32,449 bases of DNA from the UHGV virus genome UHGV-1397781. The stretch is one strand, 5' to 3'. The DNA comes from a virus. Made by a program: the position numbers and the translations under genes. Position 1 is the first letter of the stretch. Each line of letters begins with the position of its first letter. The notes below the pieces were generated by a model that was given only the letters and a program-made list of their open reading frames with translations, did no database searches and was not told the DNA's origin. Of this stretch, positions 1 to 32,449 are shown piece after piece.

Positions 1-55
1 ATGCTGGATTGAACATATCAAAATCAGGCAATTACACAAATCTATGTACAGGCTC

Positions 56-1621: not shown

Positions 1622-1796
1622 CAGATAAAAGAAATCCCCGCGAGTGCGAGGATAGTTATTCATTGTCGATATTTACATTTATTTCGAATATCTTTACTGG
1701 GTAATCGCCAAAGTCATATATTTTTTATTCTGTTTTATAAGCACTACCAAGTACTGCTTATTACAAATAAGAAAAGGCTGAAAAAAATATTTAAGG

Positions 1797-1814
1797 CCAC
1801 AACTGTGGCCCTAA
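1797..1814 (-). terminator. Candidate terminator hairpin just downstream of the LprI-like gene
   Basis: ggccac-aact-gtggcc hairpin directly after the stop at 1821; the minus strand is T-rich immediately after the stem. Confidence 0.4.
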
Positions 1815-1820
1815 ATTTAC

Positions 1821-2519: not shown

Positions 2520-2649
2520 ATTCACTCCATAAATACAAAAGCGCATTACTATAGCACTTAACCGATCGCTTATCTCGCCCGTTCGTCATTCTTATCTAAC
2601 CAGAACATGCGACTGCCACAGCACATGTCGAGGATTGCTGCATGTCCAG

Positions 2650-3198: not shown

Positions 3199-3416
3199 TT
3201 CGAACCTCTCTGTTTACTGATAAGTTCCAGATCCTCCTGGCAACTTGCACAAGTCCGACAACCCTGAACGGCCAAGCGTCTTCGTTCATCTATCGGATCG
3301 CCACACTCACAACAATGAGTGGCAGATATAGCCTGGTGGTTCAGGCGGCGCATTTTTATTGCTGTGTTGCGCTGTAATTCTTCAATTTCTGATGCTGAAT
3401 CAATGATGTCTGCCAT
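3195..3416 (-). CDS. DksA/TraR-family C4 zinc-finger protein
   Basis: 73-aa ORF with C-x2-C ... C-x2-C spacing (CCECGDPIDERRRLAVQGCRTCASC) typical of TraR/DksA zinc fingers. Confidence 0.7.
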   Translation of the reverse strand: MADIIDSASEIEELQRNTAIKMRRLNHQAISATHCCECGDPIDERRRLAVQGCRTCASCQEDLELISKQRGSK

Positions 3417-3514
3417 CTTTCATTAATCCCTGAATTGTTGGTTAATACGCTTGAGGGTGAATGCGAATAATAAAAAAGGAGCCTGTAGCTCCCTGATGAT
3501 TTTGCTTTTCATGT

Positions 3515-3730
3515 TCACCGTTCCTTAAAAACGCCGTTTAACATGCCGATTGCCAGGCTTAAATGAGTCGGTGTGAATCCCATCAGCGTTACCGTTTCGC
3601 GGTGCTTCTTCAGTACGCTACGGCAAATGTCATCGACGTTTTTATCCGGAAACTGCTGTCTGGCTTTTTTGATTTCAGAATTAGCCTGACGGGCAATACT
3701 GCGAAGGGCGTTTTCCTGCTGAGGTGTCAT
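3515..3730 (-). CDS. Small hypothetical protein, tentatively lambda orf61-like
   Basis: Start placed at internal MTPQQENALRSIARQ (ATG 3728-3730); position matches lambda orf61 between orf63 and ea22; assignment is from memory and uncertain. Confidence 0.4.
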   Translation of the reverse strand: MTPQQENALRSIARQANSEIKKARQQFPDKNVDDICRSVLKKHRETVTLMGFTPTHLSLAIGMLNGVFKER

Positions 3731-3806
3731 TGAACAAGTCCCATGTCGGCAAGCATAAGCACACAGAATATGAAGCCCGCTGCCAGAAAAATGCATTCAG
3801 TGGTTG

Positions 3807-3998
3807 TCATACCTGGTCTCTCTCATCTGCTTCTGCTTTCGCCACCATCATTTCCAGCTTTTGTGAAAGGGATGTGGCTAACGTATGAAATTCTTCGTCT
3901 GTTTCTACTGGTATTGGCACAAACCTGACTCCAATTTGAGCAAGGCTATGTGCCATCTCAATACTCGTTCTTAACTCAACAGGAGATGCTTTGTGCAT
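3807..3998 (-). CDS. Lambda orf63-like protein
   Basis: 63-aa [40 protein letters not shown] with GGAG Shine-Dalgarno; synteny with lambda orf63. Confidence 0.55.
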   Translation of the reverse strand: MHKASPVELRTSIEMAHSLAQIGVRFVPIPVETDEEFHTLATSLSQKLEMMVAKAEADERDQV

Positions 3999-4159
3999 AC
4001 CGTCTCCCGTTTATTATTTATCTTCTCAGCCAGCCGCTGTGCTTTCAGTGGATTTCTGATAACAGAAAGGCCGGGAAATACCCAGCCTCGCTTTGTAACG
4101 GAGTAGACGAAAGTGATCGCGCCTACCCGGATATTATCGTGAGGATGCGTCATCGCCAT
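3971..4159 (-). CDS. Lambda orf60a-like protein
   Basis: 62-aa [29 protein letters not shown] immediately upstream of exo, overlapping the orf63 start and the exo end as in lambda; GGGGAG Shine-Dalgarno. Confidence 0.5.
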
Positions 4160-4830
4160 TGCTCCCCAAATACAAAACCAATTTCAGCCAGTGCCTCGTC
4201 CATTTTTTCGATGAACTCCGGCACCATCTCGTCAAAACTCGCCATGTACTTTTCATTCCGCTCAATCACGACATAATGCAGGCCTTCACGCTTCATGCGC
4301 GGGTCATAGTTGGCAAAGTACCAGGCATCTTTTCGCGTCACCCACATGCTGTACTGCACCTGGGCCATGTAAGCCGACTTTATGGCCTCGAAACCACCGA
4401 GCCGGAACTTCATGAAATCCCGGGAGGTAAACGGGCATTTCAGCTCAAGGCCGTTGCCGTCACTGCATAAACCATCGGGAGAGCAGGCGGTGCGCATACT
4501 TTCGTCGCGATAGATGATCGGGGATTCAGTAACATTCACGCCGGAAGTAAACTCAAACAGGGCTCTGGCGTCATTCTCGTACTGTTTTCCCCAGGCCAGC
4601 GCCTTAGCGTTAACTTCCGGAGCCACACCGGTGCAAATCTCAGCCAGCAGGGTGTGAAAGTAGGACATTTTCATGTCAGGCCACTTTTTACCGGAGCGGG
4701 GTTTTGCTATCACATTGTGAACTTCTGAAGCCGTGATGACGCCGAGTCGTAATTTGTTCCACGCATCATCTCCCTGTTCGACAGCTCTCACGTCGATCCC
4801 GGTACGCTGCAGGATAATGTCCGGTGTCAT
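4150..4830 (-). CDS. exo: Lambda exonuclease (Red-alpha)
   Basis: 226-aa [27 protein letters not shown]... recognised as lambda Exo; ATGA overlap with the bet stop. Confidence 0.97.
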
Positions 4831-6337: not shown

Positions 6338-6706
6338 TCAGGCGGCTTTGATAGTCATATCATCTGGATCAAATATTCCTGATGTATCGATATCGGTAAT
6401 TCTTATTCCTTCGCTACCATCCATTGGAGGCCATCCTTCCTGACCATTTCCATCATTCCAGTCGAACTCACACACAACACCATATGCATTTAAGTCGCTT
6501 GAAATTGCTATAAGCAGAGCATGTTGCGCCAGCATGATTAATACAGCATTTAATACAGAGCCGTGTTTATTGAGTCGGTATTCAGAGTCTGACCAGAAAT
6601 TATTAATCTGGTAAAGTTTTTCCTCTGTCATTACGTCATGGTCGATTTCAATTTCTATTGATGCTTTCCAGTCGTAATCAATGATGTATTTTTTGATGTT
6701 TGACAT
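6338..6706 (-). CDS. ea10: Lambda Ea10 protein
   Basis: 122-aa ORF MSNIKKYIIDYDWKASIEIEIDHDVMTEEKLYQINNFWSDSEYRLNKHGSV recognised as lambda Ea10. Confidence 0.85.
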   Translation of the reverse strand: MSNIKKYIIDYDWKASIEIEIDHDVMTEEKLYQINNFWSDSEYRLNKHGSVLNAVLIMLAQHALLIAISSDLNAYGVVCEFDWNDGNGQEGWPPMDGSEGIRITDIDTSGIFDPDDMTIKAA

Positions 6707-6877
6707 CTATTCATATCCTCACAGATAAAAAATCGCCCTCATACTGGAGGGCAAAGAAGATTTCCAATAATCAGAACAAGTCGACTCCTGTTTAGTTACG
6801 AGCGACATTGCTCCGTGTATTCACTCGTTGGAATGAATACACAGTGCAGTGTTTATTCTGTTGTTTGCGTGAAAATG

Positions 6878-6896
6878 AAACCCGCCTGAGCGGGTT
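6878..6896 (-). terminator. Candidate terminator hairpin at the 3' end of the novel AT-rich gene
   Basis: aacccgc-ctga-gcgggtt perfect 7-bp stem overlapping the stop codon; minus-strand sequence after the stem is tcattttcacg. Confidence 0.4.
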
Positions 6897-7764
6897 ATGA
6901 CCACTTTTTGTTTGGATTTCGTTGGTGAGCGTGGTTTACAGGATTATTTGATATACCCCATAACTCTGACTCGCTTATCTCTACACGAGAGAAAGACCTG
7001 CTTTCTTTCAGTTCTTTTATAAACCTAGAACCTACGATGACATCTATTGTCCCAGAAAGTTCTTGTAAAAGATCTTTGTTTTTTCTGAGGAAGAAAACAT
7101 CTTCTTTATATTTAATTTTTACATAGAATTTATTCTGTATTTTTAATATATCAAAGCATGGCAGATATCTATATCCCTCATGCTTTCGCCACTGCTTAAC
7201 AATTATAACATCTCTTTCATTTACTGCATTAATCAGCCCAAGACCAAGTATAGGTATGAATATTCTATTGTCTGCCGAAAGCGTACAATTATTACCACCA
7301 GGCAAATATGTATAAATCATGTCGGAATTTTTATACGCATCAACGAATGCACGTAAGAATCGTACATATTTTTGCCATCCGTTTATACCAAATTTACCAT
7401 ATAAGTATTCTTTATTTGTTAGAAGAAAACTATTTGTATCAGGAGCCTTATCTACAGACCTGTCGATAAGATCTCCAACTACGTTTACAAAGTCAAAGAC
7501 AGAGTTTAATAAGAACAATTGTCTTTCAGTCGGGCGAATTTCAATTATGTAGCCTGGATGAAGACGATATTGCATCTGCTTACGAAGTATGCTGAACGCT
7601 TGGGTCCGGGCATCTGAAAGCAACTTCCTGTCGCCATCGCCGTGAGCATTGTTTCTAATAAAACTGATATAATTTGCTAATTTTTCAGCCTCTTTTTTGT
7701 GTTTTTTTCGCTCTGATGCCGAGTCTATTGGTTTTGGTATGGACTTGTAATCAATTTTCTTCAT
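6895..7764 (-). CDS. Hypothetical 289-aa protein, AT-rich cargo gene at the ral/sieB position; function unknown
   Basis: Long ORF with no lambda counterpart I recognise; start placed at MKKIDYK (ATG 7762-7764) with GAGGT Shine-Dalgarno 5 nt upstream; an alternative ATG at 7774-7776 overlaps the N stop (ATGA); composition visibly more AT-rich than flanking lambda genes. Confidence 0.65.
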   Translation of the reverse strand: MKKIDYKSIPKPIDSASERKKHKKEAEKLANYISFIRNNAHGDGDRKLLSDARTQAFSILRKQMQYRLHPGYIIEIRPTERQLFLLNSVFDFVNVVGDLIDRSVDKAPDTNSFLLTNKEYLYGKFGINGWQKYVRFLRAFVDAYKNSDMIYTYLPGGNNCTLSADNRIFIPILGLGLINAVNERDVIIVKQWRKHEGYRYLPCFDILKIQNKFYVKIKYKEDVFFLRKNKDLLQELSGTIDVIVGSRFIKELKESRSFSRVEISESELWGISNNPVNHAHQRNPNKKWS

Positions 7765-7772
7765 TACGTACC

Positions 7773-8096
7773 TCATGCCAATGGAATGGATTTCCCTTTA
7801 ACCTTTTGTCTTCCTTGACAAGTTATACCGAACTCACTTGGCTTGCTATACCAAACTCGATGATTCTTGCGCTCAATACGTTGCAGGTTGCTTTCAATCT
7901 GTTCGTGGTATTCAGCCAGCACCGTAAGGTCTATCGGATTCAGTGCGCTTTCTACTCGTGATTTCGGTTTGCGATTCAGCGAGAGAATAGGGCGGTTAAC
8001 TGGTTTTGCGCTTACCCCAACCAACAGGGGATTTGCTGCTTTCCATTGAGCCTGTTTCTCTGCGCGACGTTCGCGGCGGCGTGTTTGTGCATCCAT
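7773..8096 (-). CDS. N: Antitermination protein N
   Basis: Internal start MDAQTRRRERRAEKQAQWKAANPLLVGVSAKPVNRPILSLNRKPKSRVESALNPIDLTVLAEYH (ATG 8094-8096), recognised as lambda N. Confidence 0.92.
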   Translation of the reverse strand: MDAQTRRRERRAEKQAQWKAANPLLVGVSAKPVNRPILSLNRKPKSRVESALNPIDLTVLAEYHEQIESNLQRIERKNHRVWYSKPSEFGITCQGRQKVKGKSIPLA

Positions 8097-8254
8097 CTGG
8101 ATTCTCTTGTCAGTTAGCTTTGGTGGTGTGTGTGAGTCGTAGTCCTGAACGAAAACACCCCACGATTGGCTCATTTGCAGCTAATCCGGATTCGCACTTC
8201 CGGCCAATGCTTCGTTTCGTATCACACACCCCAAAGCCTTCTGCTTTGAATGCT

Positions 8255-14477: not shown

Positions 14478-14861
14478 ATGCGTGATATTCAGATGGTTCT
14501 TGAGCGTTGGGGAGCGTGGGCGGCTAATAATCATGAAGATGTGACCTGGTCGTCCATTGCCGCCGGTTTTAAGGGATTAATTCCTTCAAAAGTAAAATCT
14601 CGCCCGCAATGTTGTGACGATGACGCGATGATCATTTGCGGGTGCATGGCCCGTCTGAAAAAGAACAACAGCGATTTGCACGATTTATTAGTAGATTATT
14701 ATATAGTCGGTATGACATTCATGTCACTGGCAGGTAAGCATTGCTGCTCTGATGGTTATATCGGGAAAAGGTTACAAAAGGCTGAGGGCATAATTGAAGG
14801 GATGTTAATGGCATTAGATATCCGGTTAGAGATGGATATCGTTGTTAATAACTCTAATTAA
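14478..14861 (+). CDS. Q: Late-gene antiterminator Q, DLP12 QuuD / phage 82 type
   Basis: Internal start [60 protein letters not shown] (ATG 14478, GGAG Shine-Dalgarno). Confidence 0.9.
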
Positions 14862-15049: not shown

Positions 15050-16132
15050 TTAGAACTGGTAAACCATACCTACAGCAACGATATCATCGGTAGCAACGCC
15101 AGATGCTTTCGTGAAATCGCTCTTATCAATCAGGTTGATTTTGTAGTCAACAAAAGTGGACATATTTTTGTTGAAGTAATAGGTTGCACCTACATCAACA
15201 TATTCAACCAGGTCCTGATCACCCCAAACACCCAAGTCTTTTCCTTTAGAATGCAGGTAAGCAACGGATGGACGCAGGCCGAAGTCGAACTGATATTGTG
15301 CAACAGCTTCGAAGTTTTGTGCTTTGTTGGCAATATGGTTATTACCAAAAACAGTCATGTTCTGGGTTTCAGAATAGGTGGTGGCCAGATAGATGTTGTT
15401 CGCATCATATTTCAGACCAGCTGCCCATACTTCAGCATTTTGACCAGAAGCATTCAGACCGTTGTTACCGTAGATAACCTGATTATTAGCGCGATCAGAT
15501 TTAGCATAGGTTGCACCCACGCCGAATCCTTCATACTCATAAGTAGTTGAGAAACCGAAACCATCGCCATTAGCTTCAGTTACTTCATTTCGGTCATTTT
15601 TGCCCTGATACTGAGCTGCAAAGTTCAGGCCATCAACCAGACCAAAGAAGTCGTTGTTACGATAAGTTGCAACACCAGTGGTGCGACCAGTCATGAACAC
15701 ATCTGTTTGGGTCCAGGTATCGCCACCGAATTCTGGCAGAACGTCAGTCCACGCACCGATGTCGTATGCTACACCGTAGTTACGGCCGTAATCGATTGAG
15801 CCGTAGTCACCGAATTTCAGGCCTGCAAATGCAAGACGGGTTTTGTCTTTGGAGGAACCTTGAGATTCAGCGCGGTTGCCTTTGAATTCATATTCCCACT
15901 GACCGAAACCAGTCAGTTGATCGTTGATTTGGGTTTCACCTTTGAAGCCAAGACGGGCATAAGTAGTATCACCATCATCTGCATCATTAGAGGAGAAGTA
16001 GTGCTTAGCATTAACTTTCCCGTACAGATCCAGCTTGTTACTGTCTTTATTATAAATTTCAGCTGCCTGAGCAGACATCGCCATCAGTACTGATGCAGCT
16101 ACAGCAGAAATTGCCACTGTTAATTTTTTCAT
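15050..16132 (-). CDS. nmpC: OmpC/OmpF-family outer-membrane porin (NmpC/Lc-like), prophage-encoded
   Basis: 360-aa ORF with signal peptide [23 protein letters not shown], porin hallmarks ([25 protein letters not shown]-terminal YQF); sits between Q and the lysis genes on the opposite strand, as nmpC does in DLP12. Confidence 0.93.
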
Positions 16133-16921: not shown

Positions 16922-17418
16922 TGTCGCCATCATTACGCAAGGCTGTAGCAGCTGCTATTGGTGGTGGGGCTGTTGCCATAGCGTCTGTGCTCATCACTGG
17001 TCCGAGTGGTGACGATGGTCTGGAAGGTGTCAGCTACATACCATATAAAGATATTGTTGGTGTATGGACTGTATGTCACGGGCATACAGGAAAAGACATC
17101 ATGCTCGGTAAAACGTATACCAAAGCAGAATGCAAAGCACTCTTGAATAAAGACCTTGCCACTGTCGCCAGACAAATTAACCCGTACATCAAAGTCGATA
17201 TACCGGAAACAACGCGCGGCGCTCTTTACTCATTCGTTTACAACGTGGGTGCTGGCAATTTCAGAACATCGACGCTTCTTCGCAAAATAAACCAGGGCGA
17301 TATCAAAGGCGCATGTGATCAGCTACGTCGCTGGACATATGCTGGCGGTAAGCAATGGAAAGGTCTCATGACTCGTCGTGAGATTGAGCGTGAAATCTGT
17401 TTGTGGGGTCAGCAATGA
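16921..17418 (+). CDS. R: SAR endolysin (lysozyme with N-terminal signal-anchor-release domain)
   Basis: 165-aa ORF with hydrophobic Gly/Ala-rich N-terminus ([20 protein letters not shown]) followed by a lysozyme-like domain; start overlaps the holin stop. Confidence 0.9.
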
Positions 17419-17876
17419 ACAGAGTAACCGCGATTATCTCCGCTCTGGTTATCTGCATCATCGTCTGCCTGTCATGGGCTGTTAATCATTACCGTGATAA
17501 CGCCATTACCTACAAAGCCCAGCGCGACAAAAATGCCAGAGAACTGAAGCTGGCGAACGCGGCAATTACTGACATGCAGATGCGTCAGCGTGATGTTGCT
17601 GCGCTCGATGCAAAATACACGAAGGAGTTAGCTGATGCGAAAGCTGAAAATGATGCTCTGCGTGATGATGTTGCCGCTGGTCGTCGTCGGTTGCACATCA
17701 AAGCAGTCTGTCAGTCAGTGCGTGAAGCCACCACCGCCTCCGGCGTGGATAATGCAGCCTCCCCCCGACTGGCAGACACCGCTGAACGGGATTATTTCAC
17801 CCTCAGAGAGAGGCTGATCACTATGCAAAAACAACTGGAAGGAACCCAGAAGTATATTAATGAGCAGTGCAGATAG
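17415..17876 (+). CDS. Rz: Rz i-spanin
   Basis: Start [19 protein letters not shown] (ATG 17415, ATGA overlap with the endolysin stop); N-terminal transmembrane segment then coiled-coil. Confidence 0.9.
17635..17817 (+). CDS. Rz1: Rz1 o-spanin lipoprotein, embedded in the +1 frame of Rz
   Basis: 60-aa [27 protein letters not shown] with lipobox (VVGC) and proline-rich segment [15 protein letters not shown], wholly inside Rz. Confidence 0.85.
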
Positions 17877-17907
17877 AGCTGCCCATATCGATGGGCAACT
17901 CATGCAA

Positions 17908-18201
17908 TTATTGTGAGCAATACACACGCGCTTCCAGCGGAGTATAAATGCCTAAAGTAATAAAACCGAGAAATCCATTTACGAATGTTTGCTGGGTTTC
18001 TGTTTTAACAACATTTTCTGCGCCGCCACAAATTTGGGCTGCATCAACAGTTTTCTCCTGTCCAATTCCCGAAACGAAGAAATGATGGGTGATGGTTTCC
18101 TTTGGTGTTACTGCTGTCGGTTTGTTTCCAACAGTAAACGTCTGTTGAGCACATCCTGTAATAAGCATTGCCAGAGCGGCAGAAAACAACATTTTTTTCA
18201 T
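17908..18201 (-). CDS. bor: Bor lipoprotein (serum-resistance lysogenic conversion factor)
   Basis: Internal start MKKMLFSAALAMLITGCAQQTFTVGNKPTAVTPKETITHHFFVSGIGQ (ATG 18199-18201, AGGA Shine-Dalgarno), recognised as lambda Bor. Confidence 0.9.
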   Translation of the reverse strand: MKKMLFSAALAMLITGCAQQTFTVGNKPTAVTPKETITHHFFVSGIGQEKTVDAAQICGGAENVVKTETQQTFVNGFLGFITLGIYTPLEARVYCSQ

Positions 18202-18367
18202 CTTATTATCCTGCATTGTTAAAAACGGCAGAATCCTATGTGACAACAATTAAACGATAGTTAAATGGATTGATGAAAATTAAAACTATATAGGTGGATG
18301 CTCAGCCTATTGGAGGAGGGGGGCACTCAGAATCCTGTGGAATGAAATAAACCGCTCTATCTGTCCA

Positions 18368-18592
18368 TTACCCTTTTAGCTGCGCTGTATCGTCGCCGTA
18401 TTCCCGCATTAACCATGACCGTAGCCCGACGGGGAATTCCTTCTGCGTGAGTGTGCGGGAATAATCAAAAACGATGCACACCGGGTTTTTACCGCGTTTA
18501 TGGTTCGCGGGGGTGTCCCTCATGCTCGCCAGTCCTGTGCGGGGGTGGAAGAAACAGGACGTGTATTCAGGTCTGTGTGACTGTGGTCGCAA
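18368..18592 (-). CDS. Hypothetical ORF between bor and cos
   Basis: 74-aa ORF in a region where lambda also carries a small conserved ORF; no functional evidence. Confidence 0.3.
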   Translation of the reverse strand: MRPQSHRPEYTSCFFHPRTGLASMRDTPANHKRGKNPVCIVFDYSRTLTQKEFPVGLRSWLMREYGDDTAQLKG

Positions 18593-18677
18593 GACTTTTG
18601 TCGTTCAGCTATTAAATCCCATTACGAAGTAGACCAGAACGGCCAACGGGTCCTTTCCGGCGATCCGACAGGTTACG

Positions 18678-18689
18678 GGGCGGCGACCT
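18678..18689. other. cos site: cosN 12-nt cohesive end GGGCGGCGACCT (cosQ to the left, cosB to the right)
   Basis: acgggtcctttccggcgatccgacaggttacg-gggcggcgacct-cgcgggttttcgctatttatgaaaattttccgg matches the lambda genome ends. Confidence 0.92.
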
Positions 18690-18866
18690 CGCGGGTTTTC
18701 GCTATTTATGAAAATTTTCCGGTTTAAGGTGTTTCCGTTCTTCTTCGTCGTAACTTAATGTTTTTATTTAAAATACCCCCTGAAAAGAAAGGAAACGACA
18801 GGTGCTGAAAGCGGGCTTTTTGGCCTTTGTCGTTTCCTTTCTCTGTTTTTGTCCGTGGAATGAACA

Positions 18867-19386
18867 ATGGAAGTCAACAAAAAGCAGCTGGCTGACATTT
18901 TCGGTGCGAGTATCCGTACCATTCAGAACTGGCAGGAACAGGGAATGCCCGTTCTGCGAGGCGGTGGCAAGGGTAATGAGGTGCTTTATGACTCTGCCGC
19001 CGTCATAAAATGGTATGCCGAAAGGGATGCTGAAATTGAGAACGAAAAGCTGCGCCGGGAGGTTGAAGAACTGCGGCAGGCCAGCGAGGCAGATCTCCAG
19101 CCAGGGACTATTGAGTACGAACGCCATCGACTTACGCGTGCGCAGGCCGACGCACAGGAACTGAAGAATGCCAGAGACTCCGCTGAAGTGGTGGAAACCG
19201 CATTCTGTACTTTCGTGTTGTCGCGGATCGCAGGTGAAATTGCCAGTATTCTCGACGGGATCCCCCTGTCGGTGCAGCGGCGTTTTCCGGAACTGGAAAA
19301 CCGACATGTTGATTTCCTGAAACGGGATATCATCAAAGCCATGAACAAAGCAGCCGCGCTGGATGAACTGATACCGGGGTTGCTGA

Positions 19387-19412
<26 letters not shown>
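18867..19412 (+). CDS. nu1: Terminase small subunit Nu1
   Basis: 181-aa ORF MEVNKKQLADIFGASIRTIQNWQEQGMPVLRGGGKGNEVLYDSAAVIKWYAERD recognised as lambda Nu1. Confidence 0.97.
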
Positions 19413-23093
<3,681 letters not shown>

Positions 23094-23113
<20 letters not shown>

Positions 23114-24413
23114 TCTCCCGCATATTGCCAGCATGGCTTTTAATGAGCCGCTGATGCTTGAACCCGCCTATGCGCGGGTTTTCTTTTGTGCGCTTGCAGG
23201 CCAGCTTGGGATCAGCCGCCTGACGGATGCGGTGTCCGGCGACAGCCTGACTGCCCAGGAGGCACCCGCGACGCTGGCGTTATCCGTTAATGATGACGGA
23301 CCACGACAGGCCCGCAGTTATCAGGTCATGAACGGCATCGCCGTGCTGCCGGTGTCCGGCACGCTGGTCAGCCGGACGCGAGCGCTGCAGCCGTATTCGG
23401 GGATGACCGGTTACAACGGCATTATCGCCCGTCTGCAACAGGCTGCCAGTGACCCGATGGTGGACGGCATTCTGCTGGATATGGACACGCCCGGCGGAAT
23501 GGTGGCAGGGGCATTTGACTGCGCTGACATCATCGCCCGTGTGCGTGACATAAAGCCGGTATGGGCGCTGGCCAATGACATGAACTGCAGCGCAGGTCAG
23601 CTGCTTGCCAGTGCCGCCTCCCGGCGTCTGGTCACGCAGACCGCCCGGACAGGCTCCATCGGCGTCATGATGGCTCACAGTAATTACGGTGCTGCGCTGG
23701 AGAAACAGGGCGTGGAAATCACGCTGATTTACAGCGGCAGCCATAAGGTGGATGGCAACCCCTACAGCCATCTTCCGGATGACGTCCGGGAGACACTGCA
23801 GTCCCGGATGGATGCAACCCGCCGGATGTTTGCACAGAAGGTATCGGCATATACCGGCCTGTCCGTGCAGGCTGTGCTGGATACCGAGGCTGCAGTGTAC
23901 AGCGGTCAGGAGGCCATTGATGCCGGACTGGCTGATGAACTTGTTAACAGTACCGATGCGATCACCGTCATGCGTGATGCACTGGATACACGTAAATCCC
24001 GTCTCTCAGGAGGGCGAATGACCAAAGAGACTCAATCAACAACTGTTTCAGCCACTGCTTCGCAGGCTGACGTTACTGACGTGGTGCAAGCGACGGAGGG
24101 CAAAAATGCCAGCGCGGCGCAGCCGGATGTGAACGCGCAGATCACCGCAGCGGTTGCGGCAGAAAACAGCCGCATTATGGGGATCCTCAACTGTGAGGAG
24201 GCTCACGGACGCGAAGAACAGGCACGCGTGCTGGCCGAAACCCCCGGTATGACCGTGGAAACGGCCCGCCGCATTCTGGCAGCTGCACCACAGAGTGCAC
24301 AGGCGCGCAGTGACACTGCGCTGGATCGTCTGATGCAGGGGGCACCGGCACCGCTGGCTGCAGGTAACCCGGCATCTGATGCCGTTAACGATTTGCTGAA
24401 CACACCAGTGTAA
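23094..24413 (+). CDS. C: Prohead protease / head protein C
   Basis: GTG start at 23094 after GAGGAGGAG Shine-Dalgarno, 20 nt inside the end of B; TAELRNLPHIASMAFNEPLMLEPAYARVFF; 439 codons. Confidence 0.93.
23808..24413 (+). CDS. nu3: Scaffolding protein Nu3 (in-frame internal start within C)
   Basis: In-frame ATG at 23808 (MDATRRMFAQKVSAYTG), 714 nt after the C start, corresponding to the lambda C/Nu3 nested arrangement. Confidence 0.75.
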   Translation: MDATRRMFAQKVSAYTGLSVQAVLDTEAAVYSGQEAIDAGLADELVNSTDAITVMRDALDTRKSRLSGGRMTKETQSTTVSATASQADVTDVVQATEGKNASAAQPDVNAQITAAVAAENSRIMGILNCEEAHGREEQARVLAETPGMTVETARRILAAAPQSAQARSDTALDRLMQGAPAPLAAGNPASDAVNDLLNTPV

Positions 24414-24422
24414 GGGATGTTT

Positions 24423-24755
24423 ATGACGAGCAAAGAAACCTTTACCCATTACCAGCCGCTGGGCAACAGTGACCCGGCACATACGGCAACCGCGCCCGGC
24501 GGATTGAGTGCGAAAGCGCCTGCAATGACCCCGCTGATGCTGGACACCTCCACCCGTAAGCTGGTTGCATGGGATGGCACCACCGACGGTGCTGCCGTTG
24601 GCATTCTGGCGGTTGCTGCTGACCAGACCAGCACCACGCTGACGTTCTACAAGTCCGGCACGTTCCGTTATGAGGATGTGCTCTGGCCGGAGGCTGCCAG
24701 CGACGAGACGAAAAAACGGACCGCGTTTGCCGGAACGGCAATCAGCATCGTTTAA
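24423..24755 (+). CDS. D: Head decoration protein D
   Basis: [43 protein letters not shown] with AAGGGA Shine-Dalgarno. Confidence 0.95.
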
Positions 24756-24772
24756 CCTTACCCTTCATCACT

Positions 24773-24797
24773 AAAGGCCGCCTGTGCGGCTTTTTTT
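24773..24797 (+). terminator. Terminator-like hairpin between D and E
   Basis: aaag-gccgc-ctgt-gcggc-ttttttt followed by a second T-run just before the E start codon. Confidence 0.4.
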
Positions 24798-24810
24798 ACG
24801 GGATTTTTTT

Positions 24811-25836
24811 ATGTCGATGTACACAACCGCCCAGCTGCTGGCGGCAAATGAGAAGAAATTTAAGTTTGATCCGCTGTTTCTGCGTCTCTTTTTCCGTGAG
24901 AGCTATCCCTTCACCACGGAGAAAGTCTATCTCTCACAAATTCCGGGACTGGTAAACATGGCGCTGTACGTTTCGCCGATTGTTTCCGGTGAGGTTATCC
25001 GCTCCCGTGGCGGCTCCACCTCTGAATTTACACCGGGATATGTCAAGCCCAAGCATGAGGTGAATCCGCAGATGACCCTGCGTCGCCTGCCGGATGAAGA
25101 TCCACAGAATCTGGCGGACCCGGCTTACCGCCGCCGTCGCATCATCCTGCAGAACATGCGAGACGAAGAGCTGGCCATTGCTCAGGTCGAAGAGATGCAG
25201 GCAGTTTCTGCCGTGCTTAAGGGCAAATACACCATGACCGGTGAAGCCTTCGATCCGGTTGAAGTGGATATGGGGCGCAGTGAGGCAAATAACATCACGC
25301 AGTCCGGCGGTACGGAGTGGAGCAAGCGTGACAAGTCCACGTATGACCCGACCGACGATATCGAAGCCTACGCGCTGAACGCCAGCGGTGTGGTGAATAT
25401 CATCGTGTTTGATCCGAAAGGCTGGGCGCTGTTCCGTTCCTTCAAAGCCGTCAGGGAGAAGCTGGATACCCGTCGCGGCTCTCATTCCGAGCTGGAGACA
25501 GCGGTAAAAGACCTGGGCAAAGCGGTGTCCTATAAGGGAATGTATGGCGATGTGGCCATCGTCGTGTATTCCGGACAGTACGTGGAAAACGGCGTCAAAA
25601 AGAACTTCCTGCCGGACAACACGATGGTGCTGGGGAACACTCAGGCACGCGGTCTGCGCACCTATGGCTGCATTCAGGATGCGGACGCACAGCGCGAAGG
25701 CATTAACGCCTCTGCCCGTTACCCGAAAAACTGGGTGACCACCGGCGATCCGGCGCGTGAGTTCACCATGATTCAGTCAGCACCGCTGATGCTGCTGGCT
25801 GACCCTGATGAGTTCGTGTCCGTACAACTGGCGTAA
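24811..25836 (+). CDS. E: Major capsid protein E
   Basis: Start MSMYTTAQLLAANEKKFKFDPLFLRLFFRESYPFTTEKVYLSQIPGLVNMALYVSPIVSGEV (ATG 24811). Confidence 0.97.
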   Translation: MSMYTTAQLLAANEKKFKFDPLFLRLFFRESYPFTTEKVYLSQIPGLVNMALYVSPIVSGEVIRSRGGSTSEFTPGYVKPKHEVNPQMTLRRLPDEDPQNLADPAYRRRRIILQNMRDEELAIAQVEEMQAVSAVLKGKYTMTGEAFDPVEVDMGRSEANNITQSGGTEWSKRDKSTYDPTDDIEAYALNASGVVNIIVFDPKGWALFRSFKAVREKLDTRRGSHSELETAVKDLGKAVSYKGMYGDVAIVVYSGQYVENGVKKNFLPDNTMVLGNTQARGLRTYGCIQDADAQREGINASARYPKNWVTTGDPAREFTMIQSAPLMLLADPDEFVSVQLA

Positions 25837-25877
25837 TCATGGCCCTTCGGGGCCATTGTTTCTCTGTGGAGGAGTCC

Positions 25878-26276
25878 ATGACGAAAGATGAACTGATTGC
25901 CCGTCTCCGCTCGCTGGGTGAACAACTGAACCGTGATGTCAGCCTGACGGGGACGAAAGAAGAACTGGCGCTCCGTGTGGCAGAGCTGGAAGAGGAGCTT
26001 GATGACACGGATGAAACTGCCGGTCAGGACACCCCTCTCAGCCGGGAAAATGTGCTGACCGGACATGAAAATGAGGTGGGATCAGCGCAGCCGGATACCG
26101 TGATTCTGGATACGTCTGAACTGGTCACGGTCGTGGCACTGGTGAAGCTGCATACTGATGCACTTCACGCCACGCGGGATGAACCTGTGGCATTTGTGCT
26201 GCCGGGAACGGCGTTTCGTGTCTCTGCCGGTGTGGCAGCCGAAATGACAGCGCGCGGCCTGGCCAGAATGCAATAA
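25878..26276 (+). CDS. FI: DNA packaging protein FI
   Basis: Start MTKDELIARLRSLGEQLNRDVSLTGTKEELALRVAELEEELDDTDE (ATG 25878, GGAGGAG Shine-Dalgarno). Confidence 0.93.
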   Translation: MTKDELIARLRSLGEQLNRDVSLTGTKEELALRVAELEEELDDTDETAGQDTPLSRENVLTGHENEVGSAQPDTVILDTSELVTVVALVKLHTDALHATRDEPVAFVLPGTAFRVSAGVAAEMTARGLARMQ

Positions 26277-26287
26277 CGGGAGGCGCT

Positions 26288-26641
26288 GTGGCTGATTTCG
26301 ATAACCTGTTCGATGCTGCCATTGCCCGCGCCGATGAAACGATACGCGGGTACATGGGAACGTCAGCCACCATGACATCCGGTGAGCAGTCCGGTGCTGT
26401 GATACGTGGTGTTTTTGATGACCCTGAAAATATCAGCTATGCCGGACAGGGCGTGCGCGTTGAAGGCTCCAGCCCGTCCCTGTTTGTCCGGACTGATGAG
26501 GTGCGGCAGCTGCGGCGTGGAGACACGCTGACCATCGGTGAGGAAAACTTCTGGATAGACCGGGTTTCGCCGGATGATGGCGGAAGCTGTCATCTCTGGC
26601 TTGGGCGTGGCGTGCCGCCTGCCGTTAACCGTCGCCGCTGA
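26288..26641 (+). CDS. FII: Head-tail connector protein FII
   Basis: GTG start at 26288, ADFDNLFDAAIARADETIRGYMGTSATMTSGEQSGAVIRGVFDDPENISYAGQGVRVEG. Confidence 0.93.
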   Translation: MADFDNLFDAAIARADETIRGYMGTSATMTSGEQSGAVIRGVFDDPENISYAGQGVRVEGSSPSLFVRTDEVRQLRRGDTLTIGEENFWIDRVSPDDGGSCHLWLGRGVPPAVNRRR

Positions 26642-26652
26642 AAGGGGGATGT

Positions 26653-27231
26653 ATGGCCATAAAAGGTCTTGAGCAGGCCGTTGAAAACCTCAGCCGTATC
26701 AGCAAAACGGCGGTGCCTGGTGCCGCCGCAATGGCCATTAACCGCGTTGCGTCATCCGCGATATCGCAGTCTGCGTCACAGGTTGCCCGTGAGACAAAGG
26801 TACGCCGGAAACTGGTAAAGGAAAGGGCCAGGCTGAAAAGGGCCACGGTCAAAAATCCGCAGGCCAGAATCAGGGTTAACCGGGGGGATTTGCCCGTAAT
26901 CAAGCTGGGTAATGCGCGGGTTGTCCTGTCCCGCCGCAGGCGTCGTAAAAAGGGGCAGCGTTCATCCCTGAAAGGTGGCGGCAGCGTGCTTGTGGTGGGA
27001 AACCGTCGTATTCCCGGCGCGTTTATTCAGCAACTGAAAAATGGCCGGTGGCATGTCATGCAGCGTGTGGCCGGGAAAAACCGTTACCCCATTGATGTGG
27101 TGAAAATCCCGATGGCGGTGCCGCTGACCACGGCGTTTAAACAGAATATTGAGCGGATACGGCGTGAACGTCTTCCGAAAGAGCTGGGCTATGCGCTGCA
27201 GCATCAACTGAGGATGGTAATAAAGCGATGA
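26653..27231 (+). CDS. Z: Tail completion protein Z
   Basis: 192-aa ORF MAIKGLEQAVENLSRISKTAVPGAAAMAINRVASSAISQSASQVARETKVRRKL. Confidence 0.95.
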   Translation: MAIKGLEQAVENLSRISKTAVPGAAAMAINRVASSAISQSASQVARETKVRRKLVKERARLKRATVKNPQARIRVNRGDLPVIKLGNARVVLSRRRRRKKGQRSSLKGGGSVLVVGNRRIPGAFIQQLKNGRWHVMQRVAGKNRYPIDVVKIPMAVPLTTAFKQNIERIRRERLPKELGYALQHQLRMVIKR

Positions 27232-27623
27232 AACATACTGAACTCCGTGCAGCCGTACTGGATGCACTGGAGAAGCATGACACCGGGGCGACGCTTTTTG
27301 ATGGTCGCCCCGCTGTTTTTGATGAGGAAGATTTTCCGGCAATTGCCGTTTATCTCACCGGCGCTGAATACACGGGCGAAGAGCTGGACAGCGATACCTG
27401 GCAGGCGGAGCTGCATATTGAAGTTTTCCTGCCTGCTCAGGTGCCGGATTCAGAGCTGGATGCGTGGATGGAGTCCCGGATTTATCCGGTGATGAGCGAT
27501 ATCCCGGCACTGTCAGATTTGATCACCAGTATGGTGGCCAGTGGCTATGACTACCGGCGCGACGATGATGCGGGCCTGTGGAGTTCAGCCGATCTGACTT
27601 ATGTCATTACCTATGAAATGTGA
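27228..27623 (+). CDS. U: Tail terminator protein U
   Basis: 131-aa [57 protein letters not shown]; ATGA overlap with the Z stop. Confidence 0.95.
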
Positions 27624-27630
27624 GGACGAT

Positions 27631-28371
27631 ATGCCAACACCAAATCCTCTGGCACCGGTGAAAGGGGCCGGGACCACACTGTGGGTTTATAACGGGAGCG
27701 GCGACCCTTATGCAAACCCGCTTTCAGACAATGACTGGTCGCGTCTGGCAAAGGTTAAAGACCTGACGCCCGGCGAACTGACCGCTGAGTCCTATGACGA
27801 CAGTTATCTCGATGATGAAGATGCGGACTGGACCGCGACCGGACAGGGGCAGAAATCTGCCGGAGATACCAGCTTCACGCTGGCGTGGATGCCCGGAGAG
27901 CAGGGGCAGCAGGCGCTGCTGGCGTGGTTTAATGAAGGTGATACCCGTGCCTATAAAATCCGCTTCCCGAACGGCACGGTCGATGTGTTCCGCGGCTGGG
28001 TCAGCAGTATCGGTAAGGCGGTGACGGCGAAGGACGTGATCACCCGCACGGTGAAAGTCACCAACGTAGGACGTCCGTCGATGGCAGAAGATCGCAGCAC
28101 GGTAACAGCGGCAACCGGTATGACCGTGACGCCAGCCAGCGCTTCCGTAGTGAAAGGGAAGAGCACCACGCTGACCGTGGCATTCCAGCCGGAAGGCGCA
28201 ACCGACAAGAGCTTCCGTGCGGTGTCAGCGGATAAAACAAAAGCCACCGTGTCGGTCAGTGGTATGACCATCACCGTGAAAGGTGTTGCTGCAGGCAAGG
28301 TCAACATTCCGGTCGTATCCGGTAATGGTGAACTTGCTGCGGTTGCAGAAATCAACGTCACCGCCAGTTAA
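27631..28371 (+). CDS. V: Major tail tube protein V (with C-terminal Ig-like domain)
   Basis: Start [50 protein letters not shown] (ATG 27631, GAGGA Shine-Dalgarno). Confidence 0.95.
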
Positions 28372-28386
28372 TCCGGAGAGTCAGCG

Positions 28387-28809
28387 ATGTTCCTGAAAAC
28401 CGAATCATTTGAACATAACGGTGTGACCGTCACGCTTTCTGAACTGTCAGCCCTGCAGCGTATTGAGCATCTCGCCCTGATGAAACGGCAGGCAGAACAG
28501 GCGGAGTCAGACAGCAACCGGAAGTTTACTGTGGAAGACGCCATCAGAACCGGCGCGTTTCTGGTGGCGATGTCCCTGTGGCATAACCATCCGCAGAAGA
28601 CAAAGCAGCCTTCCATGAATGAAGCCGTTAAACAGATTGAGCAGGAAGTGCTTACCACCTGGCCTACAGAGGCAATTTCTCATGCTGAAAACGTGGTGTA
28701 CCGGCTGTCCGGTATGTATGAGTTTGTGGTGAATGATGCCCCTGAACAGGCAGATGACGCCGGGCCAGCAGAGCCTGTTTCTGCGGGAAAGTGTTCGACG
28801 GTGAGCTGA
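28387..28809 (+). CDS. G: Tail assembly chaperone G
   Basis: 140-aa ORF MFLKTESFEHNGVTVTLSELSALQRIEHLALMKRQAEQAESDSNRKFTVEDAIR. Confidence 0.95.
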   Translation: MFLKTESFEHNGVTVTLSELSALQRIEHLALMKRQAEQAESDSNRKFTVEDAIRTGAFLVAMSLWHNHPQKTKQPSMNEAVKQIEQEVLTTWPTEAISHAENVVYRLSGMYEFVVNDAPEQADDAGPAEPVSAGKCSTVS

Positions 28810-29225
28810 GTTTTGCCCTGAAACTGGCGCGTGAGATGGGGCGACCCGACTGGCGCGCCATGCTTGCCGGGATGTCATCCACGGAGTATGCCGACTGGCA
28901 CCGCTTTTACAGTACCCATTATTTTCATGATGTTCTGCTGGATATGCACTTTTCCGGGCTGACGTACACCGTGCTCAGCCTGTTTTTCAGCGATCCGGAT
29001 ATGCATCCGCTGGATTTCAGTCTGCTGAACCGGCGCGAGGCTGACGAAGAGACTGAAGATGATGTGCTGATGCAGAAAGCGGCAGGGCTTGCCGGAGGCG
29101 TTCGTTTTGGCCCGGACGGGAATGAAGTTATCCCCGCTTCCCCGGATGTGGCGGACATGACGGAGGATGACGTAATGCTGATGACAGTATCAGAAGGGAT
29201 CGCAGGAGGAGTCCGGTATGGCTGA
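28387..29225 (+). CDS. T: G-T tail assembly chaperone fusion, made by -1 frameshift at 28785-28791
   Basis: T frame (28791-29225) encodes MFDGELSFALKLAREMGRPDWRAMLAGMSSTEYADWHRFYSTHYFHDVLLDMHF, recognised as lambda gpT; it has no independent Shine-Dalgarno-led start. Confidence 0.85.
28785..28791 (+). promoter_or_regulatory. Programmed -1 ribosomal frameshift slippery site GGGAAAG (G to G-T fusion)
   Basis: Heptamer G GGA AAG at the 3' end of G, with the T reading frame open in -1 from this point. Confidence 0.85.
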
Positions 29226-31632
29226 ACCGGTAGGCGATCTGGTCGTTGATTTAAGTCTGGATGCGGCCAGATTTGACGAGCAGATGGCCAGAGTCAGGCG
29301 TCATTTTTCCGGTACGGAAACTGATGCGAAAAAAACAGCGGCAGTCGTTGAACAGTCGCTGAGCCGACAGGCGCTGGCTGCACAGAAAGCGGGGATTTCC
29401 GTCGGGCAGTATAAAGCCGCCATGCGTATGCTGCCTGCACAGTTCACCGACGTGGCCACGCAGCTTGCAGGCGGGCAAAGTCCGTGGCTGATCCTGCTGC
29501 AACAGGGTGGTCAGGTTAAGGACTCCTTCGGCGGGATGATCCCCATGTTCAGGGGGCTTGCCGGTGCGATCACCCTGCCGATGGTGGGGGCCACCTCGCT
29601 GGCGGTGGCGACCGGTGCGCTGGCGTATGCCTGGTATCAGGGCAACTCAACCCTGTCCGATTTCAACAAAACGCTGGTCCTTTCCGGCAATCAGGCGGGA
29701 CTGACGGCAGATCGTATTCTGGCCCTGTCCAGAGCCGGGCAGGCGGCAGGGCTGACGTTTAACCAGACCAGCGAGTCACTGACGGCGCTGGTGAATGCCG
29801 GTGTGCGTGGTGGTGAGCAGTTTGAGGCGATCAGCCAGAGTGTGGCGCGTTTCTCCTCTGCATCCGGCGTGGAGGTGGACAAGGTCGCTGAAGCCTTCGG
29901 GAAGCTGACCACAGACCCGACGTCGGGACTGACAGCGATGGCACGTCAGTTCCATAACGTGACGGCGGAGCAGATTGCGTATGTTGCTCAGTTGCAGCGT
30001 TCCGGAGATGAAGCCGGGGCATTGCAGGCGGCGAACGAGGCCGCAACGAAAGGGTTTGATGACCAGACCCGCCGCCTGAAAGAGAACATGGGCACGCTGG
30101 AGACCTGGGCAGACAGGACAGCACGGGCATTCAAATCCATGTGGGATTCGGTGCTGGATATTGGTCGCCCGGACACTGCCCAGGGAATGCTGGAGAAAGC
30201 AGAAAAGGCTTTTGATGAGGCGGACAAAAAATGGCAGTGGTATCAGAGCCGGAGCCACCGGCGCGGTAAAACCTCAGCATTTCTTGCCAATCTCCGGGGA
30301 GCATGGGAGGACAGAGCGAATGCGCAACTTGGGCTTTCAGCCGCCACGTTGCAGGCCGATCTTGAAAAGGCCAGAGAGATGGCAGCAAAGGACTGGGCCG
30401 AGTCTGAGGCATCACGGCTGAAATATACCGAAGAGGCGCAGAAGGCTTACGAACGCCTGCAGACGCCGCTGGAGAAATATACCGCCCGTCAGGAAGAACT
30501 GAACAAGGCACTGAAAGACGGGAAAATCCTGCAGGCAGATTACAACACGCTGATGGCGGCGGCGAAAAAGGATTATGAAGCGACGCTGAAAAAGCCGAAA
30601 CAGTCCGGCGTGAAGGTGTCTGCGGGCGATCGTCAGGAAGACAGTGCTCATGCTGCCCTGCTGACGCTTCAGGCTGAACTCCGGACGCTGGAGAAGCATG
30701 CCGGAGCAAATGAGAAAATCAGCCAGCAGCGCCGGGATTTGTGGAAGGCGGAGAGTCAGTTCGCGGTACTGGAGGAGGCGGCGCAACGTCGCCAGCTGTC
30801 CGCACAGGAGAAATCCCTGCTGGCGCATAAAGATGAGACGCTGGAGTACAAACGCCAGCTGGCTGCACTTGGCGACAAGGTTACGTATCAGGAGCGCCTG
30901 AACGCGCTGGCGCAGCAGGCGGATAAGTTCGCACAGCAACAACGGGCAAAACGGGCAGCCATTGAGGCGAAAAACCGGGGGCTTACTGACCGGCAGGCAG
31001 CGCGGGAAGCCACAGAACAGCGCCTGAAGGAACAGTATGGCGATAATTCGCTGGCGCTGAATAACGTCATGTCAGAGCAGAAAAAGACCTGGGCGGCTGA
31101 AGACCAGCTTCGCGGGAGCTGGATGGCAGGCCTCAGGTCCGGCTGGAGTGAGTGGGAAGAGAGCGCCACGGACAGTATGTCGCAGGTTAAAAGTGCAGCC
31201 ACGCAGACCTTTGATGGTATTGCGCAGAATATGGCGGCGATGCTGACCGGCAGTGAGCAGAACTGGCGCAGCTTCACCCGTTCCGTGCTGTCCATGATGA
31301 CAGAAATTCTGCTTAAGCAGGCAATGGTGGGGATTGTCGGGAGTATCGGTAGCGCCATTGGCGGGGCTGTTGGTGGCGGCGCATCCGCATCAGGCGGTAC
31401 AGCCATTCAGGCAGCTGCGGCGAAATTCCATTTTGCAACCGGAGGATTTACGGGAACCGGCGGCAAATATGAGCCAGCGGGGATTGTTCACCGTGGTGAA
31501 TTTGTCTTCACGAAGGAGGCAACCAGCCGAATTGGTGTCGGCAACCTGTACCGCCTGATGCGGGGCTATGCGGAAGGTGGTTATGTGGGCGGGCTGAAGG
31601 CATTAATTTTAATCAGAACAATCACGTGGTGA
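29218..31632 (+). CDS. H: Tail tape-measure protein H, apparently truncated by a frameshift near the 3' end
   Basis: 804-aa ORF MAEPVGDLVVDLSLDAARFDEQMARVRRHFSG recognised as lambda gpH; the frame terminates at 31632, but the +1-shifted frame from about 31605 to 31769 still encodes gpH-like C-terminal sequence. Confidence 0.85.
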   Translation: MAEPVGDLVVDLSLDAARFDEQMARVRRHFSGTETDAKKTAAVVEQSLSRQALAAQKAGISVGQYKAAMRMLPAQFTDVATQLAGGQSPWLILLQQGGQVKDSFGGMIPMFRGLAGAITLPMVGATSLAVATGALAYAWYQGNSTLSDFNKTLVLSGNQAGLTADRILALSRAGQAAGLTFNQTSESLTALVNAGVRGGEQFEAISQSVARFSSASGVEVDKVAEAFGKLTTDPTSGLTAMARQFHNVTAEQIAYVAQLQRSGDEAGALQAANEAATKGFDDQTRRLKENMGTLETWADRTARAFKSMWDSVLDIGRPDTAQGMLEKAEKAFDEADKKWQWYQSRSHRRGKTSAFLANLRGAWEDRANAQLGLSAATLQADLEKAREMAAKDWAESEASRLKYTEEAQKAYERLQTPLEKYTARQEELNKALKDGKILQADYNTLMAAAKKDYEATLKKPKQSGVKVSAGDRQEDSAHAALLTLQAELRTLEKHAGANEKISQQRRDLWKAESQFAVLEEAAQRRQLSAQEKSLLAHKDETLEYKRQLAALGDKVTYQERLNALAQQADKFAQQQRAKRAAIEAKNRGLTDRQAAREATEQRLKEQYGDNSLALNNVMSEQKKTWAAEDQLRGSWMAGLRSGWSEWEESATDSMSQVKSAATQTFDGIAQNMAAMLTGSEQNWRSFTRSVLSMMTEILLKQAMVGIVGSIGSAIGGAVGGGASASGGTAIQAAAAKFHFATGGFTGTGGKYEPAGIVHRGEFVFTKEATSRIGVGNLYRLMRGYAEGGYVGGLKALILIRTITW

Positions 31633-31769
31633 TTCAGAACGACGGTACGAATGGTCTGCCAGGTCCACAGATGATGAAGGCAGTGTATGACATGGCCCGC
31701 AAGGGTGCCCGTGATGAAATTCAGGCACAGATGCGCGATGGTGGTCTGTTCTCCGGAGGTGAACGATGA
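31605..31769 (+). other. Out-of-frame remnant of the gpH C-terminus
   Basis: Alternative frame reads NFNQNNHVVIQNDGTNGLPGPQMMKAVYDMARKGARDEIQAQMRDGGLFSGGER and ends in an ATGA overlap with the M start codon. Confidence 0.6.
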
Positions 31770-32095
31770 AGACCTTCCGCTGGAAAGTGAAGCCCGGTAT
31801 GGATGTGGCTTCGGCCCCTTCCGTCAGGAAAGTGCGCTTTGGTGATGGCTATTCCCAGCGAGCGCCTGCCGGGCTGAATGCCGACCTGAAAACGTACAGC
31901 GTGACGCTTTCTGTTCCCCGTTGGGAGGCCACGGCGCTGGAGTCGTTTCTGGCTGAGCACGGGGGCTGGAAAGCCTTTCTGTGGACGCCGCCTTATGAGT
32001 GGCGGCAGATAAAGGTGACCTGCGCAAAATGGTCGTCGCGGGTCAGTATGCTGCGTGTTGAGTTCAGCGCAGAGTTTGAACAGGTGGTGAACTGA
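31766..32095 (+). CDS. M: Tail tip assembly protein M
   Basis: 109-aa ORF MKTFRWKVKPGMDVASAPSVRKVRFGDGYSQRAPAGLNADLKTYSVTLSVPRWEA. Confidence 0.95.
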   Translation: MKTFRWKVKPGMDVASAPSVRKVRFGDGYSQRAPAGLNADLKTYSVTLSVPRWEATALESFLAEHGGWKAFLWTPPYEWRQIKVTCAKWSSRVSMLRVEFSAEFEQVVN

Positions 32096-32449
32096 TGCAG
32101 GATATCCGGCAGGAAACACTGAATGAATGCACCCGTGCGGAGCAGTCGGCCAGCGTGGTGCTCTGGGAAATCGACCTGACAGAGGTCGGTGGAGAACGTT
32201 ATTTTTTCTGTAATGAGCAGAACGAAAAAGGTGAGCCGGTCACCTGGCAGGGGCGACAGTATCAGCCGTATCCCATTCAGGGGAGTGGTTTTGAACTGAA
32301 TGGCAAAGGCACCAGTACGCGCCCCACACTGACGGTTTCTAACCTGTACGGTATGGTCACCGGGATGGCGGAAGATCTGCAGAGTCTGGTCGGTGGAACG
32401 GTGGTCCGGCGTAAGGTTTACGCCCGTTTTCTGGATGCGGTGAACTTCG
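32095..32449 (+). CDS. L: Tail tip protein L, 5' portion only (truncated by the window end)
   Basis: ATG at 32095 overlapping the M stop; manual translation MQDIRQETLNECTRAEQSASVVLWEIDLTEVGGERYFFCNEQNEKGEPVTWQGRQYQPYPIQ; not in the ORF track because no stop lies within the window. Confidence 0.85.
   Translation, partial: MQDIRQETLNECTRAEQSASVVLWEIDLTEVGGERYFFCNEQNEKGEPVTWQGRQYQPYPIQGSGFELNGKGTSTRPTLTVSNLYGMVTGMAEDLQSLVGGTVVRRKVYARFLDAVNF

Follow-up and report, generated by a model that had tools for sequence, protein, structure and literature searches.

The window, a stretch of 32,449 nucleotides, is a JGI metagenome contig (Ga0495776_037987, sample 3300045988) that carries the left 32 kb of a lambda-like E. 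coli prophage in prophage order, from int to L. Its tail operon contains V, G, T, H, M, and L in order, all full length except H (L is cut by the window end). The reading frame of the tape-measure gene H stops early and leaves 133 bp (31633–31765) non-coding ahead of M, an arrangement that the initial annotation had reported and that the ORF list bears out (Table 1). The question that this locus raises is whether H was truncated by an indel, whether the break is a sequencing or assembly error, or whether H is expressed here as two forms. The answer that we consider very probable is that a real 28-bp deletion, which took codons 793–801 and one further base, has recently disabled H in a tail-defective prophage of the lambda family. 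An ordinary, recently disabled prophage gene is thus the most likely explanation, rather than a new expression mechanism.

Table 1. Positions of the features discussed, numbered along the window.
Feature	Position	Strand	Basis or remark
Terminal bases of IS256-like IS1414, abutting the prophage within the lambda-type attL P' arm	1..55		
Truncated tape-measure ORF (H')	29218..31632	+	804 aa (792 native plus 12 out-of-frame residues), then TGA; ORF list
Deletion junction, single remaining GGCGG microhomology copy	31588..31592		28 bp (GGCGGTGCCGGAAGTCCGGCGCAGATGC) missing relative to intact relatives
Orphaned 3' coding segment of H, -1 frame	31593..31769	+	58 codons plus TGA; equivalent to lambda gpH 796–853
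Out-of-frame tail of H' (LKALILIRTITW) and premature TGA stop (31630–31632)	31594..31632	+	Translation
GTG GTG A, a pair of GTG codons read in the orphan frame	31626..31632	+	Second GTG overlaps the H' stop as GTGA (31629); possible restart
Codons equivalent to lambda gpH 818–849	31659..31754	+	Match to the 32-residue chain 9e7m_Ha
Gene M, intact	31766..32095	+	109 aa; ORF list; Pfam Phage_min_tail across the full profile length

A second frame, with codon starts divisible by 3, has no stops from 31500 to 31769 and reads ...AEGINFNQNNHVVIQNDGTNGLPGPQMMKAVYDMARKGARDEIQAQMRDGGLFSGGER up to its stop codon; its TGA (31767–31769) overlaps the ATG of M (31766–31768) as ATGA, so the open frame and the overlap described earlier are both present in the sequence. 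The codon starts of H lie at 1 mod 3 and those of the conserved C-terminal segment at 0 mod 3. The second frame is therefore the -1 (or +2) frame and not the +1 frame of the initial annotation, as expected from the loss of 28 (27 + 1) bases, and its homology begins at approximately 31590–31593 instead of about 31605. The proposal that this frame encodes the gpH C-terminus was supported by 2 alignments. The orphan segment (58 codons from 31593) matched lambda gpH residues 800–853 in PDB 8iyk (E = 1e-23), with matches to the same residues of the lambda tape measure in PDB 8iyl/8k35, and a tblastn alignment with residues 801–859 of an intact E. coli H gave 98.3% identity. Because of these alignments, we regard the second-frame homology as not being due to chance. 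Downstream, M has its own GGAGG 7–12 nt upstream of the ATG, so that coupling to H may not be required for it to be expressed. Since M is also 100% identical to that of a relative, no polar effect on M is expected.

Alignment of the site with phage PhiR63_1 (98.5% identical), lambda, PhiR29_1, and PhiR47_2 revealed 28 consecutive bases missing between 31587 and 31588, which identifies an indel, one of the causes of the H truncation proposed at the outset, as a single 28-bp deletion; the alignments with E. coli prophages (2 in number) agree with this. The closest intact H that we found is that of E. coli isolate 07-4299 (NZ_CP027462.1), which served as the reference for the H–M comparison. Over the whole H–M region (~2.9 kb), the window differs from this reference by 11 substitutions and one 28-column gap at 31587, with no further indel in the pairwise alignment. 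Re-insertion of the 28 bp restores an uninterrupted 859-aa H with 4 residue differences from the relative. The orphan segment carries one substitution compared with this relative, a G-to-A change at 31762 that replaces Gly by Glu at residue 858, a number too small for an assessment of relaxed selection.

The ancestral sequence, read in both PhiR63_1 and E. coli 07-4299, is GTG-GGCGG-TGCCGGAAGTCCGGCGCAGATGC-GGCGG-GCTG, and the window has GTG-GGCGG-GCTG; the deletion therefore took one GGCGG copy and the 23 bp between the copies. In other words, a 5-bp direct repeat flanked the deleted segment (31587/31593) on either side in the ancestor, and one copy of it is left, as is characteristic of slipped-strand or microhomology-mediated deletion. 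The 2 ancestral copies are situated in a G+C-rich, self-complementary stretch whose single-stranded DNA fold has an energy of -12.7 kcal/mol (z = -2.7). A specific hairpin formed by the palindrome GCCGGAAGTCCGGC in the deleted segment was considered and rejected. This palindrome is absent from the predicted minimum-energy DNA fold, and we therefore describe the stretch as structured and claim no specific hairpin. We infer from the repeat arrangement that replication slippage or a microhomology-mediated event between the 2 GGCGG copies, 23 bp apart, produced the deletion.

A sequencing or assembly artefact, with the 28 bp still there in the actual DNA, might be suspected from the G+C-rich, self-complementary nature of the deleted segment and from the metagenomic origin of the window. 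However, the identical 804-aa product was found on 11 contigs from NCBI, ENA, and JGI, representing several samples and assemblers (NCBI GCA_900536485.1, three ENA assemblies with MEGAHIT- and SPAdes-style names, and the JGI contig itself), all of which contain the junction. A 26-mer junction search of JGI/ENA metagenome contigs yielded one further record, ULVV01025656.1, which is 100% identical to window positions 19331–32394 (13 kb). The records are not copies of one assembly, because the contigs differ elsewhere: contig L008 has 82 differences from the window, of which 81 lie upstream of H, the change-over falling between 29253 and 29321, and contigs L005, L006, and L007 are mutually different in L, K, and I, with 85 substitutions in K/I between L005 and L006. 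Such mosaic flanks could have arisen because lambdoid prophages recombined or because the metagenome contigs are chimeric. The same junction thus recurs in at least 6 records from different samples and assemblers, including contigs that differ elsewhere, and a 5-bp repeat should be unable to collapse a de Bruijn graph at k = 127 or 141. The sequencing or assembly error envisaged by the initial annotation is therefore extremely unlikely. The occurrence of one junction on contigs with different surroundings indicates an allele that is real and shared by descent.

The allele is absent from the larger collections searched. A 45-bp query, designed so that all its 28-mers include the deletion junction, had no match in 5,426 complete E. 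coli genomes. Each of the 40 best matches among E. coli genomes extends over 629 bp, compared with 601 in the window. The same spans were found, in two pieces, for all 40 of the phage records listed. The junction was not found among 50,697 phage records (0 of the 10 records that matched the junction query hold it), and the junction 35-mer had no match in IMG/VR or the GTDB species representatives. These searches indicate that the allele is rare and lineage-restricted. In the 4 phage records retrieved, H is intact and overlaps M. The same frame structure in functional relatives, which would have spoken against a disabling mutation, was not found, the inspected cultured lambdoid records having an intact H that overlaps M. 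Proteins of 43–51 aa in the same 90% cluster, named "tape measure, partial," were considered as possible signs of recurrent splits of H. These proteins have arbitrary start residues, and most have "partial" in their source names, so that they look like contig-edge fragments.

In the window, the ribosome would leave the native frame at the junction, read 12 codons out of frame, and stop at the premature TGA; the last 58 codons of H lie untranslated in the -1 frame. A tblastn search with the intact 859-aa H showed that H' retains native residues 1–792, to which the out-of-frame residues are appended; H' contains ...GGYVGGLKALILIR. Relative to the ancestral protein, residues 793–801 are deleted and residues 802–859 are in the -1 frame. 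The truncation by an indel suggested by the initial annotation therefore stands, and its figure of about 50 residues describes the net shortening (859 to 804), whereas the loss of native sequence is 67 residues (793–859). H' remains recognizable as a lambda-family tape measure by the profile cut-offs, with scores of 238 bits for PF06791 (TMP_2; cut-off 30.2), 75.9 bits for PF09718 (Tape_meas_lam_C; cut-off 23), and 409.7 bits for TIGR01541 (cut-off 104.75), and H occupies the expected position between the G/T chaperone genes and M. However, H' lacks a complete C-terminus in one frame, with the gpI-docking helix and the overlap with the M start. Because the match to TIGR01541 extends no further than position 308 of the 332 in the profile and residues 801–859 align only in the -1 frame, the alignments identify H as a disrupted member (a pseudogene-like allele) of the lambda tape-measure family.

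The lost region is the one that contacts the tail tip in lambda. In the lumen of the lambda tip, residues 818–842/849 of gpH make up a coiled coil of three helices that the gpI trimer supports (PMC10721106). In lambda, gpH is cleaved into gpH* (~residues 1–710) and gpHC, and a fragment of residues 818–849 remains bound to gpI; this cleavage takes place after tail assembly (PMC12617516). H' loses the segment equivalent to the part of gpH that is resolved in the tip, the 818–849 helix included, and the break is located within gpHC, past the cleavage region and ahead of the structured helix. Removal of the last 30 residues from the tape measure of the lactococcal phage TP901-1 led to heads without tails (PMC5099701). 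By this analogy, and with the need for the C-terminus in lambda itself taken from the structure together with the analogy, H' is probably unable to dock on the tip initiator and the prophage is probably tail-defective. Without the C-terminal helix, tail tubes would not be nucleated, because the tape measure would be unable to dock on the tip initiator; the prophage would then make heads and few or no infectious particles.

The remainder of the prophage is largely intact. All 55 of the other genes compared with relatives align over their full length (L up to the window end), and H alone is split. The genes compared include int, xis, exo, bet, gam, kil, cIII, repressor, cro, cII, O, P, the nin genes, Q, the porin and lysis genes, Nu1, A, W, B, C, D, E, FI, FII, Z, U, V, G, T, M, and L. 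A second lesion is located at the left end. Window positions 1–58 are 100% identical to a multi-copy sequence that occurs at up to 20 places per genome and 587 times on plasmids, and that adjoins an annotated IS256-like IS1414 transposase gene. In relatives integrated beside ybhC, the P' arm comes after the lambda attL core GCTTTTTTATACTAA. Prophage homology in the window does not start until base 56, within this arm, and the core and ~25 bp of the arm present in a relative are not adjacent there. An IS between the attL core and the arm sites should impair excision. The deletion in H and the IS1414 in attL are 2 lesions that fit early decay, and the suggestion of a possibly defective prophage gains support from both, the defectiveness itself being deduced from them. 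The prophage would persist by vertical inheritance in its E. coli lineage, with IS1414 in the attL arm.

Several observations sit less easily with a recently disabled gene. The 55 other genes compared are full length, and decay is evident nowhere beyond H and the IS; the presence of the same allele in differing flanks could mean that it has spread by recombination; and natural cleavage in lambda leaves the C-terminal helix on a polypeptide of its own (gpHC), so that a split protein is not absurd a priori. A split tape measure would consist of H', ending at the TGA at 31630–31632, and a peptide of 46 or 32 residues restarted at GTG 31629 or ATG 31671, which would carry the whole gpI-docking helix, assemble in trans, and mimic gpH*/gpHC. 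The GTGA stop/start overlap is present, the orphan ORF corresponds to lambda residues 808–853, gene callers in other assemblies predict a 46-aa ORF from the GTGA site, and the predicted restart product contains MIQNDGTNGLPGPQMMK. The gpI-bound existence of residues 818–849 as a separate fragment after natural cleavage of gpH (PMC12617516), the intactness of all other compared genes, and the occurrence of the allele in several samples and mosaic flanks also fit this arrangement. However, there is no Shine-Dalgarno sequence within 20 nt upstream of the GTG codons, and GTG GTG A merely represents, in another frame, the conserved Val-Val codons of ...NNHVVI..., which are present in all relatives. 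Because lambda cleavage follows tail assembly, it is probably through the covalent link that the tape measure reaches the tip. The arrangement occurs in none of the 5,426 complete genomes or of the cultured phages searched, and the mosaic flanks are possibly metagenome chimeras or the result of prophage gene conversion. We therefore consider a split tape measure of this kind very unlikely. Its working form, in which H' (1–792) measures the tail and the 46-residue GTGA-restart peptide supplies the gpI-docking coiled coil in trans, is highly improbable; if it did work, siphophage tails would be able to assemble without a covalent connection from the tape measure to its tip anchor.

Correction during translation is the other route by which the C-terminus could be made. 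A -1 shift anywhere in 31500–31632 would rejoin both frames, and if some ribosomes slipped there (for example tRNA-Leu on U_UUA at 31608–31611), the product would be a near-full-length H without 9 residues of a variable Gly-rich linker. This linker differs strongly between lambda and the H family of the window, the -1 frame is open across the whole overlap, the TTTT at 31607–31610 is a weak one-tRNA slip site, and a leaky phenotype is conceivable because few copies of H are needed per tail. By contrast, no X XXY YYZ heptamer occurs in the H frame in 31480–31632, where only the partial runs A ATT TTA and T TTA ATC are found, and the scan for slippery heptamers and long homopolymers gave nothing canonical, the TTTT run being the only one. 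Background slippage without a programmed site is very low. The arrangement is neither shared nor conserved in any relative, including related functional genomes, and the G-T slippery site GGGAAAG is present in the same operon at 28785. We consider translational correction very unlikely. The expression of H as two forms, raised by the initial annotation, thus finds neither a heptamer nor a relative with the same frame structure, and a recently disabled H is the explanation that we retain.

For annotation, H should be marked as disrupted; gene callers in other assemblies have instead recorded a shortened tape measure with a separate hypothetical gene of 46 aa behind it. The prophage should be scored as probably tail-defective. 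The locus also illustrates neatly, in a natural setting, how slippage can delete the DNA between 5-bp repeats. Beyond annotation, it has little wider significance, with one exception. Because the gene is broken past the gpH cleavage region but ahead of the tip-bound helix, the allele could be a ready-made construct for asking whether lambda tail assembly requires this helix to be covalently attached. The 2025 structure paper on Ur-lambda left the essentiality of the cleavage and the role of gpHC open (PMC12617516).

Comparison with known systems places the locus as follows. Lambda H (gpH, 853 aa) and its 859-aa E. coli prophage variant share with the window H the position in V-G-T-H-M-L, the T/H overlap, the G-T heptamer, and the TMP_2, Tape_meas_lam_C, and TIGR01541 families. 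The window H differs in lacking 28 bp, with the last 67 native residues deleted or out of frame. The ATGA overlap of H and M belongs, in the window, to an untranslated frame. In lambda gpH*/gpHC (pb2/pb2C in T5), as in the window, the tip-bound helix is apart from the bulk of the tape measure. In mature lambda, it lies on a separate polypeptide produced by post-assembly proteolysis of the full-length protein at ~residue 690–710, whereas the break in the window is genetic, falls at residue 792, precedes assembly, and leaves a downstream piece that is putative. The lambda G-T programmed -1 frameshift lies in the same operon, and a -1 shift would be needed for H too, but the break in H has neither heptamer nor conservation and was made by a deletion observed only in the lineage of the window. 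The closest likeness is to decaying lambdoid prophages of E. coli, in which a frameshift in a structural gene and an IS at the attachment site accompany an otherwise intact prophage. There is no difference of substance from these, and the window, with an ordinary event of a well-known kind, a frameshift by deletion in a lambdoid prophage, is one more example.

The truncated H allele is identical in different samples, and the sequence that flanks it differs among them. Upstream of H, the contig L008 differs from window 26218–29253 by 81 substitutions in FI–T; downstream of H, comparison of three further contigs with the same truncated product (L005, L006, and L007) at locus 6359–7564 revealed 85 substitutions in K/I. 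These differing flanks reflect either recombination among lambdoid prophages or chimeric metagenome contigs. A G-to-A substitution at window 31762, which replaces the penultimate Gly of H (GGGR) with Glu (GGER), is confined, among the sequences compared, to the lineage that bears the H deletion. The substituted site is located in the untranslated orphan frame, that is to say, the 3′ segment of H cut off from its reading frame, 4 nt upstream of the M start codon.

At the left end of the contig (window 1–58), the first ~55 bp come from the terminus of an IS256-like element, IS1414, which is inserted in the P′ arm of the lambda-type attL. Neither the attL core nor the initial ~25 bp of the P′ arm adjoins the prophage at this end of the window. 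The insertion probably blocks excision by Int/Xis, and it is probably also the reason why the contig ends at this point.

Features of the window other than H are listed in the table below. The product of the OmpC-like porin gene is 99.7% identical to a copy annotated as ompC in a related prophage, and the gene looks like a lysogenic-conversion (moron) gene.

Positions of additional features in the window
Feature	Position	Strand	Remark
133-aa ORF	7773–8174	−	candidate N by position; roughly at the place of N in the E. coli Jnd12 prophage
Q antiterminator	14478–14858		
OmpC-like porin gene (360 aa)	15050–16132	−	between Q and the lysis genes
ORF	17908–18249	−	fills mosaic-patch space
ORF	18768–19307	−	fills mosaic-patch space
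G ORF	28387–28809		
Lambda G–T programmed −1 slippery heptamer GGGAAAG	28785–28791		in the G/T ORF overlap
T ORF	28791–29225		

Compared with its closest left-arm relative, the prophage of E. coli Jnd12 (L013), the window carries a mosaic patch at 17415–18860, in which an Rz-like gene has only 68% identity to that of the relative, and the Rha, DUF1398, and YlcI genes of the Jnd12 prophage have no counterpart. The annotation of the Jnd12 prophage gives its N antiterminator (9481–9673 of L013) as a pseudogene with a frameshift; its portal gene is interrupted by another integrase-bearing element. The lesions of these 2 related prophages differ.
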